A stretch of 64,000 bases of DNA from sequence record OQ067375.1. The stretch is one strand, 5' to 3'. Made by a program: the position numbers and the translations under genes. Below, piece after piece: positions 21,825 to 43,821 of this stretch. The notes under the pieces are model-generated. The model saw nothing but the letters and a program-made list of their open reading frames with translations. It did not search any database and was not told where the DNA came from. Each line of letters starts with the position of its first letter. Positions within the stretch are counted from its first letter, which is position 1. The stretch is from Escherichia phage a48.

Positions 21825-21852
21825 TTTCTGTTCCTCCGTAGTTGATAGTTGT

Positions 21853-21882
21853 ATAGTACCACAGAGGAACAGTCTTGTAAAC
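21853..21882 (-). promoter_or_regulatory. early sigma70-type promoter (-35 GTTTACA, -10 TACTAT)
   Basis: Shares the conserved GTGGTACTATACAACTATC core with four other sites; upstream of the ORF starting at 21824. Confidence 0.6.
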
Positions 21883-26066: not shown

Positions 26067-26096
26067 ACTATACCATAACCTTGCCAACTTGTAAAC
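26067..26096 (-). promoter_or_regulatory. early sigma70-type promoter (-35 TTTACA, -10 TATAGT)
   Basis: 17-bp spacer; upstream of the 25374-25931 gene. Confidence 0.5.
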
Positions 26097-30561: not shown

Positions 30562-31023
30562 TCATTGAGTTTTAATTACTGCTTTAGAAGCCTTTCCTGG
30601 TAAACGACGACTGTTAATAATTGCCATTCTACATTGAAGTGACGGGTCTTTGAACTTCTCATTAGGTTTACAAACTGTAAATCCAAGCCAAAGATTTCCA
30701 TCTGTGATTTCTAAACGTCCAGGACGATATTCAACCCCATCAATAAAATCCTCATCGATGTCAGGACGCGGAGGCATACTCAGGAATTCATTAACTTCTA
30801 AAACATGGTCTTTTATTTTGTGGAATAATTCAAAAACATATGTCTCATCAATCTCCCGTTGAATTGCACGATCAAGAAGATGCTGAGAATATTTTAGATG
30901 AAACGATGAGACTCCTGCTGCTTTTGATGCCTCACGAATCTCATTGTTAATTTGACGAAACTCCGACTCAAAGTGACGACGAAGCTTATTTCGACGGATA
31001 AAAACTTCAGTGTTGATAGTCAT
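30562..31023 (-). CDS. regB: RegB site-specific endoribonuclease
   Basis: 153 aa; sequence matches T4 RegB as recalled; strong early promoter immediately upstream. Confidence 0.88.
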   Translation of the reverse strand: MTINTEVFIRRNKLRRHFESEFRQINNEIREASKAAGVSSFHLKYSQHLLDRAIQREIDETYVFELFHKIKDHVLEVNEFLSMPPRPDIDEDFIDGVEYRPGRLEITDGNLWLGFTVCKPNEKFKDPSLQCRMAIINSRRLPGKASKAVIKTQ

Positions 31024-31050
31024 GTTATTCTCCTCTTAACTGATAGAAAA

Positions 31051-31080
31051 ATTATACCACAGTCAAGAGGAAAAGTAAAC
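31051..31080 (-). promoter_or_regulatory. early promoter of regB (-35 GTTTACT, 17 bp, -10 TATAAT)
   Basis: Consensus-quality hexamers 27 bp upstream of the regB ATG. Confidence 0.7.
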
Positions 31081-33229: not shown

Positions 33230-33703
33230 TTATTTGAATGATTTGACGTACTGAATAGAGCCTTTGCTATTCACGAAAGCGATTTTACCATTTTTATTAT
33301 ACATGGTAGCAGTACGCTGATAACCATAAGTTTGTTTACCAGATTGATAACCAACTAATGCAAAATTATCTTCGCCCATTTTATTCTGTTTGGCGCGGAT
33401 ACGTTCATGACCGTGTGCCATAAGAACCTTAGCGTCGCCAGTTGCAATGGATCTACGAGTTTTTTCATCTTCAACCGTATTAACAAAGTCGTCAAATGAA
33501 TCAAATTTAGCATGAGATTTATTATACAGTTTTCCATCTACTGCATAATTATATCCCTGTACATCCATCTCAACTTCTGTACCATCATCCAATACAGCAG
33601 TGATTTTTTGACCTTTTTTAAATTTCAAAAGATCAGTAAAAGATTCAGCGATAATTTGAGAATTAATAGCTGCTTCAGTAATAAATTCTTGATATGTTTT
33701 CAT
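33230..33703 (-). CDS. internal-protein-like capsid-targeted protein
   Basis: 157 aa; N-terminus MKTYQEFITEAA matches the T4 internal-protein capsid targeting sequence. Confidence 0.6.
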   Translation of the reverse strand: MKTYQEFITEAAINSQIIAESFTDLLKFKKGQKITAVLDDGTEVEMDVQGYNYAVDGKLYNKSHAKFDSFDDFVNTVEDEKTRRSIATGDAKVLMAHGHERIRAKQNKMGEDNFALVGYQSGKQTYGYQRTATMYNKNGKIAFVNSKGSIQYVKSFK

Positions 33704-33712
33704 GTGTTTCCT

Positions 33713-34129
33713 TTAAATGTAAATATTTTTGCCGTAGTATTTATACCAGTGTGGCTTCATTAAAATTTTTTCATCGAGTCGTTGTTGACTCAATTTAATA
33801 GCCGATTTGCATGGGTTATAATCATTTTTCCATTCTGCTGGAATATCGCTGATGTCAGGAACTTCAGTATCTTTTATACTAAACCCGCGTTTTAAGCATT
33901 CCGTTATAATGTCTGATTGACGCTTTCGCAAAAATTCTAACTTATCATAAAAGAACGTAACATGACCAGAACCTAAAATAAACTCGGAAGATATTTTAAA
34001 ATCTTTAACCCGCTTACCATTTGCCACATGTTTACGAACTATACCAAAAACACGTGGCAATTCACGGTATTCTGCGATTAAATGTTGATCAACAAGTTCA
34101 GATACTAAAGTCAAATTAATACGAGTCAT
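33713..34129 (-). CDS. denV: endonuclease V (pyrimidine dimer DNA glycosylase)
   Basis: 138 aa; sequence closely matches T4 endonuclease V as recalled. Confidence 0.92.
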
Positions 34130-34154
34130 TTTATCCCTCCAAGTAATTGTGAAT

Positions 34155-34184
34155 ATACTATCACAATTCTAGGAGAAAGTAAAC
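34155..34184 (-). promoter_or_regulatory. early sigma70-type promoter upstream of denV
   Basis: -35 GTTTACT, -10 TAGTAT; between e and denV. Confidence 0.55.
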
Positions 34185-40788: not shown

Positions 40789-41076
40789 TTACCATTTATG
40801 ATGATACGTATTTACGATACATTCAAGACACAAAGGATTCTTGAAAATATCATATTCAAGAGGACCTTTTTCTGTTTCAATAAAGAAATCAAAATTTACT
40901 GTATTAAATTTACGGTCTTCCTTCACTAATTTAACTTGAGAAGATGAACGGTCAATGTAAACCTTTTCAACTTCAAAACATGTTAAAATGCCATAATCAT
41001 CAATCAAGGCTTTAGCTGCTTCTTGATCATATTTATATCCATTTTCAATGGATGATACTTTCGCATAAAGAATCAT
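40789..41076 (-). CDS. hypothetical protein
   Basis: 95 aa ORF. Confidence 0.45.
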   Translation of the reverse strand: MILYAKVSSIENGYKYDQEAAKALIDDYGILTCFEVEKVYIDRSSSQVKLVKEDRKFNTVNFDFFIETEKGPLEYDIFKNPLCLECIVNTYHHKW

Positions 41077-41078
41077 TA

Positions 41079-41477
41079 TCAGCCTTCATCAACAATAGTG
41101 TGAGTATTAGCATTTACGATTTGCCACCAATCAAAGCGATTAGAATCCATCGGTTTGTTTTCATTTTCTTTGATAATGTCACGGAGTTCATCTTCAGAGA
41201 ATGCTTTAGCGATTAAATCGGTATACCCACCACGTGGATAATAATTATCACCTGCAAACAAAAGGAAATTTACCTTCCCGGAAGGAACATACGCTTCCTT
41301 AGGATACTTGTTTCCTGCGTGGTCAACCACTTCAATATAACGGTAAGGAATATCGGTTCTTTCAACCCATTGCCATGCCGCTGCAGGGGAATCGAAAGCA
41401 TCTACACCTAAACGATTATCTTCATCTTTAGACGGATTATTTTCGTAATCCGCATATACATAATATTCAACGTTCAT
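41079..41477 (-). CDS. hypothetical protein
   Basis: 132 aa acidic ORF. Confidence 0.5.
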   Translation of the reverse strand: MNVEYYVYADYENNPSKDEDNRLGVDAFDSPAAAWQWVERTDIPYRYIEVVDHAGNKYPKEAYVPSGKVNFLLFAGDNYYPRGGYTDLIAKAFSEDELRDIIKENENKPMDSNRFDWWQIVNANTHTIVDEG

Positions 41478-41662
41478 TATTCACCTTTAGAAATTTTATC
41501 CATAACAATAGCAATTAAACCAATTAAAAATGCTACTACAAGTGAAAACACATTTTCTGCTGTAGTCAATAATCCACATATAAATCCAACAAACATTGAA
41601 AAACTAAAAGCGGAAGCAGAAATTGCAATAGCAACATTTCGAATTAATTCACAACGTTTCAT
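41477..41662 (-). CDS. small membrane protein
   Basis: 61 aa, mostly hydrophobic; own early-type promoter upstream. Confidence 0.45.
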   Translation of the reverse strand: MKRCELIRNVAIAISASAFSFSMFVGFICGLLTTAENVFSLVVAFLIGLIAIVMDKISKGE

Positions 41663-41690
41663 TTTATTCTCCTCAGTAGTAGATAGGGTA

Positions 41691-41720
41691 ATAGTATCAC
41701 TACCCTATCTAAAAGTAAAC
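41691..41720 (-). promoter_or_regulatory. early sigma70-type promoter, -10 inside an inverted repeat
   Basis: GTTTACT ... GTGATACTATTA; flanking inverted repeat AGATAGGGTA/TACCCTATCT; upstream of the 41477-41662 gene. Confidence 0.55.
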
Positions 41721-41954
41721 TTATTTTTTACGAAAAATTGATTTATTTTCTGCTGCCCATTTTTCAATAACTGCAGCAGGACCAGTAACAACAATTTTAT
41801 CACCGTAATCTTCTGCGGCGAGTTGACCGAAATTATCTAATGCATCACGAAGAACTCCATGAGGCATTTCACCCATTTTATCTTTCTTGCCAGTGTAAAT
41901 AAACTCAACTTTTACATCAGCAGTTTCAGCAATAAATTCTTGGTAAGTTTTCAT
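41721..41954 (-). CDS. internal-protein-like capsid-targeted protein
   Basis: 77 aa from MKTYQEFIAETAD...; capsid-targeting-sequence N-terminus; own promoter upstream. Confidence 0.55.
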   Translation of the reverse strand: MKTYQEFIAETADVKVEFIYTGKKDKMGEMPHGVLRDALDNFGQLAAEDYGDKIVVTGPAAVIEKWAAENKSIFRKK

Positions 41955-41988
41955 TTTGATTTCCATTTGGTTTTGTTTTGATAGGGTA

Positions 41989-42018
41989 ATAGTATCACAA
42001 CTAAAACCCTATGTAAAC
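41989..42018 (-). promoter_or_regulatory. early sigma70-type promoter, -10 inside an inverted repeat
   Basis: GTTTACA ... GTGATACTATTA; flanked by GATAGGGT/ACCCTAT; upstream of the 41721-41954 gene. Confidence 0.55.
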
Positions 42019-42030
42019 AACTTTGTGAAA

Positions 42031-42288
42031 TTATTTTAAATCTTCTAATCGTTTCTTCATCTTAGAACCATTTTTAGCAATTTCTCCTGCATCGGAGCAT
42101 AATGCTAAAAGTGCTTTAACTTTAGTTTGGTCTCCTTTAAAAGATGAAGGATCGACCGCAGCAGCAAGTTCTTTAATACGAGAGAAAAGACGCTCAGCTT
42201 CAGCTAAAGCCATTCCAAGCTTTACTTCCATACCGTGGGAAGATTCAGTGATAGTAGTTTTTGTAGCAAACTCTTTGAAAGTTTTCAT
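42031..42288 (-). CDS. internal-protein-like small protein
   Basis: 85 aa; N-terminus MKTFKEFATK resembles the capsid targeting sequence; own promoter upstream. Confidence 0.5.
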   Translation of the reverse strand: MKTFKEFATKTTITESSHGMEVKLGMALAEAERLFSRIKELAAAVDPSSFKGDQTKVKALLALCSDAGEIAKNGSKMKKRLEDLK

Positions 42289-42319
42289 TTTTATTTTCCT
42301 AATTAATTTTGATGAGGTA

Positions 42320-42350
42320 ATAGTATCACTACCTCATCAGTATGTAAACA
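42320..42350 (-). promoter_or_regulatory. early sigma70-type promoter, -10 inside an inverted repeat
   Basis: GTTTACA ... GTGATACTATTA; flanked by GATGAGGTA/TACCTCATC; upstream of the 42031-42288 gene. Confidence 0.55.
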
Positions 42351-42361
42351 ACTTTGTGAAA

Positions 42362-43046
<685 letters not shown>

Positions 43047-43047
<1 letters not shown>

Positions 43048-43772
43048 TATAGTACCTTTAGTGTATTTTTAATTTTAGAAAAAAGTTCTTCAAGAGAACC
43101 ATCGTTTGTAATTACTAAATCGCCATCACGAATTGGCAATCCAGCTTCTGTAATATGTGTATCATTGGATTTTTGACCAGGACGAACTACATGAATTACT
43201 GTAGCACCCATCGCCCTAGCCGCATCCATTTCATGATCTTGACGGGTATCAGGAACGATATAATAATCATAACCTGAGTTAAATTTATCAAGATAATCTA
43301 AAGCAAATAATTTTACCCAGTACATGCGGTCGAAGTTATTAACAATCAAATCCGTACCTAGGGCTTGCATCAGACGACGGACTGACCATTGATCTTCAAT
43401 ATTATTTATAACGTCAGTAATTTTGTTAAATGCTACGAAATTAACTGATTCTTTTCCTTCGTCATCAAAAACAAACACACCTTTAATTGGGCTTTTACCA
43501 TTAAGATAGCAAAATGCTTGTTCCATAATCGTGATTACTTCTAATTTAGTCAGATTTAAATTAGTCTCACGATCATAGTCAATTCCTTCAAACTCTTTAC
43601 GAGTTAAGCAAGGATAGTCAGTGTTTGCTGCAAATACACCCCATGCATAAGCCAATGCATCCTTAATAGGACCAGCAAGTTGGTATTTAACTGCAGAATA
43701 ATTACTCATGATAAAATCAGCAGTAGTATCTTTTCCACTACGCTTTACACCGCTTAAAAAGATTAGTTTCAT
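43047..43772 (-). CDS. 1: deoxynucleoside monophosphate kinase gp1
   Basis: 241 aa from MKLIFLSGVKRSGKDT... (P-loop); ATG verified at 43770-43772 with GAGGAG upstream. Confidence 0.92.
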
Positions 43773-43821
43773 GTGTTTCTCCTCAAATTTAATTAAGATT
43801 ATAACACACAAAACTGAAGCA

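Follow-up and report, generated by a model that had tools for sequence, protein, structure and literature searches.

The 64,000-nucleotide (nt) stretch of Escherichia phage a48 analyzed here (sequence record OQ067375.1), in the following referred to as the window, carries 3 tandem early promoters whose -10 regions are associated with inverted repeats able to fold into hairpins. They belong to a locus in which every gene is encoded on the minus strand and for which PST and T2 annotate the genes ipV/ip5, ipVI, trna.4, and 57B. Positions 41400-42900 are 100% identical to several Tequatroviruses, among them Yersinia phage PYPS2T as well as the Escherichia phages D5505 and G9062, and are matched by 778 phage records; by its sequence, the window is that of a PST/T4-like Tequatrovirus. 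Gene names were taken from the T2 and PST annotations and from direct comparison with T4, and the genes of the locus are as follows:

43047-43811, minus strand: gene 1 (T2/PST annotation, T4 comparison)
42817-43047, minus strand: 57A (T2/PST annotation, T4 comparison)
42362-42820, minus strand: 57B, labeled Acb1 or RNA ligase-like in other records; upstream gene of cassette 3
42031-42288, minus strand: ip5 (IpV), internal protein of 85 amino acids (aa) with the capsid-targeting leader MKTFKEF
41721-41954, minus strand: ip6 (IpVI), internal protein of 77 aa with the leader MKTYQEFIAE
41477-41662, minus strand: trna.4, predicted membrane protein of 61 aa, not an internal protein; 100% identical to T4 trna.4
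41079-41477, minus strand: trna.3 (T2/PST annotation, T4 comparison)

A first-pass annotation of this DNA had described the 3 sites as internal-protein promoters sharing an identical -10 core. The identical core was borne out at the reported sites, as the 12-mer GTGATACTATTA occurs exactly 3 times in the window, each time on the minus strand; allowing up to 1 mismatch yields 5 matches compared to 0.6 expected, and none of 100 shuffles reached 5. However, since the assigned genes are ip5, ip6, and trna.4, just 2 of the 3 promoters serve internal proteins, while the third drives the gene of a membrane protein. All 3 sites are T4-type early promoters composed of TTTAC(A/T), a 17-nt spacer, and TACTAT with a TG extended -10. 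They are numbered here from low to high coordinates, and their features are:

41689-41700, 41987-41998, and 42318-42329, minus strand: exact copies of the core GTGATACTATTA
42320..42348, minus strand: ip5 early promoter (site 3); -35 TTTACA at 42343-42348, 17-nt spacer, TGA-TACTAT with the hexamer at 42320-42325
41989..42017, minus strand: ip6 early promoter (site 2); -35 TTTACA at 42012-42017, -10 TACTAT at 41989-41994
41691..41719, minus strand: trna.4 early promoter (site 1); -35 TTTACT at 41714-41719, -10 TACTAT at 41691-41696
41680..41711, minus strand: hairpin 1; TAGATAGGGTA / TACCCTATCTA (41680-41690 / 41701-41711), 11 bp, perfect
42310..42339, minus strand: hairpin 3; TGATGAGGTA / TACCTCATCA (42310-42319 / 42330-42339), 10 bp, perfect
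41973..42020, minus strand: hairpin 2, displaced and imperfect; core arms ATAGGGT / ACCCTAT with additional inner and outer helices

At sites 1 and 3, the -10 element is, as had been claimed, enclosed by arms that differ between the copies yet remain complementary. Both hairpins are perfect repeats around the same 10-nt loop, GTGATACTAT, which is the extended -10, and the 2 sites differ by three two-sided changes that keep the pairing (G-C to A-T, A-T to G-C, and A-T to T-A). In hairpin 3, the 5' arm TGATGAGGTA lies in the promoter spacer and the 3' arm TACCTCATCA spans about -6 to +4. The arms thereby occupy the only sequence-free positions beside the extended -10, with the 5' arm in the spacer (~-28 to -18) and the 3' arm in the discriminator and start region (~-6 to +4). 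The same claim does not hold for site 2, where the repeat is imperfect, displaced, and in another register. Here, core arms at 41981-41987 / 42006-42012 form 7 bp around an 18-nt loop (read on the minus strand, ATAGGGT is 42006-42012 and ACCCTAT is 41981-41987), and this core stem belongs to an imperfect inverted repeat of greater length (41973-41993 / 42000-42020), whose 21-nt arms are 81% complementary. The 5' arm ATAGGGT directly follows the -35, 7 nt farther upstream than at sites 1 and 3. In a comparison of site 2 (41973-42020) with site 1 (41680-41719), the blocks TTTAG and ATAGGGT stand in swapped order; the 17-nt spacer is preserved despite this swap, and pairing is retained with the 5' arm placed 7 nt upstream. 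A similar displacement of the arm, together with a tandem duplication of GGTTAT, was observed in a Salmonella-phage-like contig (loci L099 and L052).

The pairing was analyzed across relatives, namely T4, T2, PST, Ozark, ECML-134, e11/2, F1, RB9, G2540-3, Ec_MI-02, SG1, and slur04, the Mosigviruses WFL6982, NBG1, and GADS24, the Dhakaviruses VR5 and WG01, as well as contigs from IMG/VR and metagenomes. Searches provided 17 loci with a strict promoter pattern in IMG/VR, 8 with gp57A in IMG/VR, and 15 with 57B in metagenomes, and the remaining loci were taken individually from GenBank phage records; a loose pattern, TTTAC-N14-GTGATACTAT, returned from IMG/VR mostly chance or unrelated hits among the matches listed. 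A total of 124 distinct T4-type early promoters, chosen regardless of pairing, were aligned over 43 nt without gaps and evaluated in a single register, in which the 5' arm ends 4 nt before the hexamer and the 3' arm begins immediately after it. Across these promoters, 52.3% of cells were paired compared to 46.2 +/- 0.9 after shuffling, and 165 cells showed two-sided changes compared to 107 +/- 9; neither value was reached in any of 500 shuffles. The covariation score was 0.258, as opposed to 0.172 for shuffled data and 0.11-0.16 when the partner column was slid by 1-3. Furthermore, runs of at least 6 pairs were present in 17.7% of promoters but in 2.3% with swapped partners and in no more than 1.4% in shifted registers. 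Tight wraps, i.e., at least 9 uninterrupted bp, were found in 9 of 93 nonredundant promoters, with 1.2 obtained from swapped partners (maximum of 4 in 200 trials) and 0.5 from shuffled spacers. From 22 sequences with arms in this register, RNAalifold predicted the hairpin unprompted, with two-sided changes in 6 of its 8 pairs. Pairs of arms with unrelated sequences in the common register include:

GTGTAGGAGC / GCTCCTACAC
GGTAGGACT / AGTCCTACC, compared to GATAGGACT / AGTCCTATC
GGGAGT / ACTCCC, compared to GAGAGC / GCTCTC
GGGCT / AGCCC, compared to GGGTT / AACCC
GGGAAC / GTTCCC

The comparison with related phages thus revealed that the arms are kept as pairs with many unrelated sequences in the same register. 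With pairing, two-sided changes, and covariation all exceeding the 500 shuffles and the slid registers, the earlier proposal that selection acts on the structure rather than on the sequence is supported.

The hairpins are also more stable as sense RNA than in the alternative forms. Sense RNAs of sites 1, 2, and 3 fold with -18.5, -18.1, and -17.4 kcal/mol, respectively (z-scores against dinucleotide shuffles of -3.3, -4.9, and -4.6), whereas the antisense RNA is 1.4-3.8 kcal/mol weaker across the 3 sites (-14.7 at site 1 and -13.7 at site 3), and as DNA the sites reach roughly -8 to -10 kcal/mol for each strand. Moreover, the conserved core GUG...UAU offers three extra pairs in the sense RNA only, by which the loop closes to AUAC. 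When 21 distinct arm combinations were examined over their 9-bp cores, the sense strand showed 15 G·U compared to 2 A·C (binomial p = 0.002), and both A·C mismatches fall in one obviously recombinant cassette; an earlier, smaller tally had given 15 and 5. This bias is confined to the tight-wrap class, as all long-range helices taken together showed no significant difference (18 G·U and 14 A·C). One G·U-containing variant, TGATGAGGTA / TATCTCATCA, is widespread (T2, PST, SG1, and Ec_MI-02), and in the PST cassette upstream of trna.4 (locus L158), AGATGGGGTA and TATCTCATCA pair only through two G·U. In the same PST cassette, G·U pairs allow the arm GATGGGGTA to match each of the three 3'-arm variants of the locus (TACCCTATC, TACCTCATC, and TATCTCATC). 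Since neither a DNA structure nor the mirror-image RNA would distinguish G·U from A·C, the asymmetry points to the sense RNA. Of the possibilities raised in the first-pass annotation, a hairpin of the read-through RNA is therefore favored over a cruciform or a protein-binding site, and we consider a role of the stem at the RNA level to be probable, albeit far from certain.

From the promoter geometry, transcription is expected to start ~7 nt after the -10, inside the 3' arm. As the 5' arm is located between the promoter's -35 and -10 elements, and hence is absent from the local transcript, the hairpin would be able to form only in read-through RNA coming from the upstream gene. Accordingly arranged, the local mRNA would begin within the 3' arm and have an unstructured leader, while a polymerase coming from the upstream gene would copy both arms, so that only the polycistronic sense RNA would fold. 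Its hairpin of 10-14 bp (~-17 to -18.5 kcal/mol) would then separate the stop codon of the upstream gene from the Shine-Dalgarno sequence that follows. Covariation and G·U bias show that this computed read-through fold is under selection. Functionally, the hairpin might act as an intercistronic RNA insulator that attenuates or marks read-through transcripts, and it might also provide the upstream cistron with a 3'-proximal stem that would block 3'-to-5' exonucleases after cleavage farther downstream, be it within the A/U-rich leader or, in the mRNA of trna.4, at GGAG. In the case of trna.4, this RegB target lies 8 nt past the stem; RegB cuts the Shine-Dalgarno GGAG of early mRNAs, and structure blocks the cutting. 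Intercistronic stem-loops such as REP elements and that of malE-malF are known as 3'-exonuclease barriers in polycistronic bacterial mRNAs. The hairpins described here share with them a stable stem-loop without a U-tract between cistrons, but the REP and malE-malF elements are not embedded in a promoter, and for the present sites it is we who infer a stabilizing role. A function as processing or 3' stability element, as proposed in the first-pass annotation, appears plausible. Judging from the sequence data, the hairpin would most likely serve as an RNA insulator between cistrons and be part of a recombination cassette, and owing to such insulation, modules of gene plus promoter could be expressed largely regardless of their position; the specific assignment as insulator or as 3'-exonuclease barrier is put forward tentatively. 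A search of the literature for genome-wide maps of T4 transcript starts or 3' ends returned nothing usable.

The promoters and hairpins are part of a larger repeated unit, a 71-nt direct repeat with 86% identity between its 2 copies:

42307..42377, minus strand: 71-nt cassette copy with the last codons of 57B (...DLK stop), A/T-rich region, promoter, and hairpin
41976..42046, minus strand: second 71-nt cassette copy, which starts in the last codons of ip5 (...DLK stop) and spans the promoter

57B and ip5 share the C-terminal ...D-L-K-stop, encoded by GATTTAAAATAA (42340-42385 and 42010-42055, minus strand), and since these codons belong to the repeat, the recombination module includes C-terminal codons of the gene upstream, whose stop codon lies within the A/T-rich upstream region of the promoter. 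The repeat exceeds the hairpin in length, and conserved capsid-targeting codons come next. This conserved stretch, running from the last upstream codons through the promoter core to the codons of the capsid-targeting leader, supplies the homology for insertion, deletion, and swapping of internal-protein genes, as seen in the comparison of phages. In fact, the cassettes are mosaics in which three 5' halves (A to C) and three 3' halves (a to c) are variously combined:

5' halves: A, ...ctgatgaggtagtga; B, ...tagggttttagttgtga; C, ...tttagatagggtagtga
3' half a: tacctcatcaaaattaattagg, leading into internal proteins with the MKTFKEF leader
3' half b: taccctatcaaaacaaa, leading into ip6
3' half c: taccctatc(a/t)actactgaggag, leading into trna.4

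Cassette 3 (42310-42339) is found identically in T4, upstream of ipI. T4 has a single internal-protein gene at this locus, and its trna.4 promoter consists of the 5' half of window copy 2 and a trna.4-type 3' half, which has the TACCCTATC arm in common with window copy 1. The number of internal-protein genes between 57B and trna.4 varies from 0 (slur04) to 1 (F1, SG1, and Ec_MI-02) and 2 (the window phage, PST, T2, RB9, e11/2, and ECML-134); in slur04 (L168), a single B+c cassette links 57B straight to trna.4. Mismatched arms occur in B+a cassettes of T2 (L154) and RB9 (L163) as well as in C-like+a cassettes of WG01 (L164) and loci L122/L127, for example, AAATAGGGTA with TACCTCATCA or the B-type TAGGGT with TACCTCATC, in each case with an intact promoter. 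Crossovers have therefore taken place at the -10 core or close to it, and the phages tolerate a broken hairpin.

These properties very probably identify the 3 sites as cassettes of the promoter-early stem-loop (PeSL) type, and since the window phage is PST-like and one of its cassettes is identical to the T4 ipI promoter, our finding is a rediscovery of an element that is already known. The first-pass annotation had named neither PeSLs or the internal-protein locus cassettes nor recombination modules. PeSLs were defined in RB49/phi1, where they are concentrated in hyperplastic regions and recombine mutually, and overlap of the stem-loop with the -10 is among their commonest layouts (Arbiol 2010, PMC2839356). 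They were later cataloged in PST/T4 (and in nt-1/KVP40) with the consensus TTTACW-N17-TAYWAT (Comeau 2014 [Comeau, Arbiol & Krisch], PMC4122927), which fits all 3 sites of the window. Likewise, the sites combine an intergenic, A/T-rich region upstream, a strong early promoter, a stem-loop over this promoter (10-11 bp enclosing the -10 at sites 1 and 3, a displaced composite stem at site 2), and a Shine-Dalgarno sequence with ATG start codon downstream. They are situated next to variable small genes in a hyperplastic region (0-2 internal-protein genes) and have recombined with each other, as is evident from the chimeric halves in T4, T2, RB9, WG01, and L122/L127. In contrast, the RB49/phi1 PeSLs have sigma-70-consensus promoters and stems with G/C runs, one of which was shown to attenuate, whereas the present stems are A/U-rich, lack a U-tract, and are known here from sequence alone. 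Covariation, G·U bias, and a fixed register are not analyzed in the published PeSL work. According to Arbiol 2010 (PMC2839356), Repoila 1994 saw PeSL-like elements (analogues) at the two T-even internal-protein loci, with T4 early promoters and weaker, A/T-rich stems of variable size. The locus (57B to trna.4) and the idea of shuffling are the same as here. An Rfam 15 search over 41000-43000 gave only a chance match (snoZ169, 22 bits compared to a gathering threshold of 55, E = 0.88), which rules out a known curated RNA family. Repoila, Tetart, Bouet, and Krisch are said to have described in 1994 (EMBO J 13:4181) that conserved sequences of ~70 bp with an early promoter flank each internal-protein gene and mediate the shuffling.

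The published interpretation of PeSLs is that of a composite promoter-terminator, whose stem-loop stops polymerases arriving from the upstream gene. The hairpins in the window are intergenic and stable as RNA, as this would require, PST/T4 elements have been termed promoter-terminator motifs (Comeau 2014, PMC4122927), and one RB49/phi1 stem lowered lacZ expression as much as rrnB T1, indicative of attenuator activity (Arbiol 2010, PMC2839356). However, that stem was GGGG/CCCC while the present ones are A/U-rich, a scan for G+C-rich stems followed by a T-run yielded 0 sites on both strands between 40800 and 43200, and the sequences 3' of the stems are rich in A (AAAAUUAAUUAGG, CUACUGAGGAG, and CAAAACAAAACC). 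An intrinsic terminator is thereby ruled out for this interval, and we consider the promoter-terminator interpretation unlikely. A role of the DNA itself would be conceivable if the palindrome extruded as a cruciform or hairpin, either to stimulate recombination or as a substrate of endonuclease VII, or if it served a dimeric regulator of the promoter as its operator. Perfect duplex palindromes are present at sites 1 and 3, inter-cassette crossovers map in or beside the -10 core, and a stem-specific recombination protein has been speculated about (Arbiol 2010, PMC2839356). Nevertheless, 70-130 bp of flanking homology accounts for the crossovers, and the 10-nt loop together with about -8 kcal/mol per DNA strand makes extrusion costly. 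While G·T and A·C would be equally disfavored in a cruciform, the stem cores tolerate G·T (15 compared to 2), and the arms vary between copies and phages with complementarity kept, without any sequence shared across cassettes, which rules out a common protein operator. The cruciform or dimeric-protein site that had been considered in the first-pass annotation has thus become quite improbable.

A translational mask, as found at e, soc, 49, and I-TevI of T4, would have the same geometry, with local transcripts that lack the 5' arm and read-through transcripts that fold the helix, a logic described only for the late promoters of these genes (Uzan & Miller 2010, PMC3014915); the word "translation" is absent from Arbiol 2010 (PMC2839356). 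At other early promoters of the window, those of regB (31079), denV (34183), and at 21881, the spacer does pair with the promoter's own Shine-Dalgarno region, and helices of at least 9 bp over the Shine-Dalgarno sequence number 10 compared to 2.8 with swapped partners. Yet, while the T4 helices hide the Shine-Dalgarno sequence or AUG and embed late promoters, the 3 promoters examined here are early, their Shine-Dalgarno sequences and AUGs lie 5-20 nt outside the stem, and both are unpaired in the minimum-energy folds of read-through RNAs of 106-111 nt. In addition, the probability that the Shine-Dalgarno sequence pairs with anything upstream of the start did not differ significantly between cognate (0.50), swapped (0.52), and shuffled (0.47) spacers. 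A mask is therefore ruled out for ip5, ip6, and trna.4, and as an explanation of the hairpins in general it appears very unlikely; without a U-tract and with a free Shine-Dalgarno sequence, they are neither classical terminators nor translational masks. Finally, the palindromes might have no function at all and derive from one duplicated cassette and be kept perfect by templated (quasi-palindrome) repair, or they might be due to chance. Quasi-palindrome-templated mutation has its classic model system in T4, the 3 copies are paralogous (71-nt repeat), and recombinants with broken arms are viable. On the other hand, many unrelated arms are complementary in the same register, far above the swapped, shuffled, and slid controls, templated correction would yield Watson-Crick pairs instead of an excess of G·U, and even a displaced 5' arm was retained (window copy 2 and L099/L052), which leaves little room for this possibility. 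Taken together, T-even PeSL elements with a read-through RNA hairpin provide the best explanation for the 3 sites, one we consider reasonably probable.

Several points weigh against this explanation. The compared sequences share descent and have recombined; the shuffle statistics therefore overstate their independence, and the shuffle counts do not equal probabilities. The G·U excess corresponds to roughly ten independent events and could be inflated by a strand-biased mutation spectrum. As T2, RB9, and WG01 contain broken-arm recombinants, the hairpin is dispensable, at least transiently. Efficient intrinsic termination is unlikely, since no U-tract follows any stem on either strand, and the function of the T-even hairpins is one that we infer.

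Beyond the 3 sites, the first-pass annotation had stated that other early promoters in the window share the -10 core and lack the palindrome, and both parts had to be revised. The exact core is limited to the 3 sites, and inverted repeats are present at other early promoters, for example those with a -35 starting at 34183, 31079, 26095, and 21881, where they sit around the -10 or link the spacer with the 5' untranslated region (UTR). At 26095, the promoter contains a stem of 10 bp that includes G·U pairs and lies in a register equal to that of sites 1 and 3, and the denV promoter (34183) combines AATTGTGA / TCACAATT around the -10 with an outer CTCC/GGAG pairing. At the promoters of regB (31079) and at 21881, helices of 12-15 bp join the spacer to the promoter's own Shine-Dalgarno region. 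Promoters of this kind and their pairings are:

31020-31079, 34125-34183, and 21825-21881, minus strand: promoters with spacer/Shine-Dalgarno pairing (in T4, locus L138: 2664-2720 and 5271-5328)
regB: TTTTCCTCTTGACTG / CAGTTAAGAGGAGAA, 15 bp with 2 G·U, conserved in T4
promoter at 21881: CTGTTCCTCT / GGAGGAACAG
denV: CTCCTGTAG / CTACAGGAG in T4, TTCCTCCAAG / CTTGGAGGAA in L130/L132, and CTCC...GGAG in the window

For denV, these are three unrelated spacers, each of which fits the Shine-Dalgarno region of its own phage. When the spacers of 15 early promoters of the window were combined with all of their 5' UTRs, the cognate partner was the best of 15 in 8 cases, and the mean duplex energy was -9.9 kcal/mol for cognate compared to -6.2 for noncognate combinations (permutation p ~5e-5). 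In 21 of the 93 nonredundant promoters, the untranscribed promoter part formed a helix of at least 9 bp with the promoter's own 5' UTR, compared to 5.2 with swapped partners and 3.7 with shuffled spacers; 10 of the 21 overlapped the Shine-Dalgarno sequence (2.8 and 2.1 expected from swapping and shuffling, respectively). This enrichment is restricted to long uninterrupted helices, and since the cruder occlusion statistic given above fails to separate cognate spacers, a generalization to spacer/5' UTR pairing is only partly supported. Tight -10 wraps and spacer-to-Shine-Dalgarno helices may represent two forms of a single start-straddling design that acts in read-through RNA only, although we regard this as rather doubtful. 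Pairing between spacer and Shine-Dalgarno sequence at other early promoters is not discussed in the PeSL papers. In the alignment (A1), columns 7-9, i.e., the start of the spacer after TTTAC[A/T], are enriched in T/C-C-C, often as TCC or TTCC, and many spacers are consequently complementary to Shine-Dalgarno sequences in a generic manner; this enrichment may be a promoter requirement or an anti-Shine-Dalgarno feature.

If the two kinds of helix are indeed forms of such a single design, PeSL stem-loops would be RNA switches specific for read-through instead of terminators, the expression of a cassette would be independent of its neighbors, and the logic of e, soc, 49, and I-TevI would reach beyond a few late genes into the early transcriptome. 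Knowledge of whether the stem acts as RNA insulator, terminator, or recombination signal would explain how strong promoters ~300 bp apart operate without interference, and it would yield design rules for the insertion of genes into T4-like therapeutic phages. The internal proteins whose genes these cassettes flank are injected anti-restriction factors; Ip1, Ip2, and Ip3 each act against a different GmrSD enzyme, which they block (PMC12373910), and the cassettes form the joints at which phages exchange their internal-protein anti-restriction arsenal.

Another internal-protein gene is located outside of this locus and encodes a protein of 157 aa with the leader MKTYQEFITE (33230-33703). Upstream of it (33703-33790, minus strand), we observed the T4 late-promoter consensus TATAAATA in place of an early promoter/hairpin cassette, and because this consensus precedes the gene, internal-protein genes at this second locus may be under different control.

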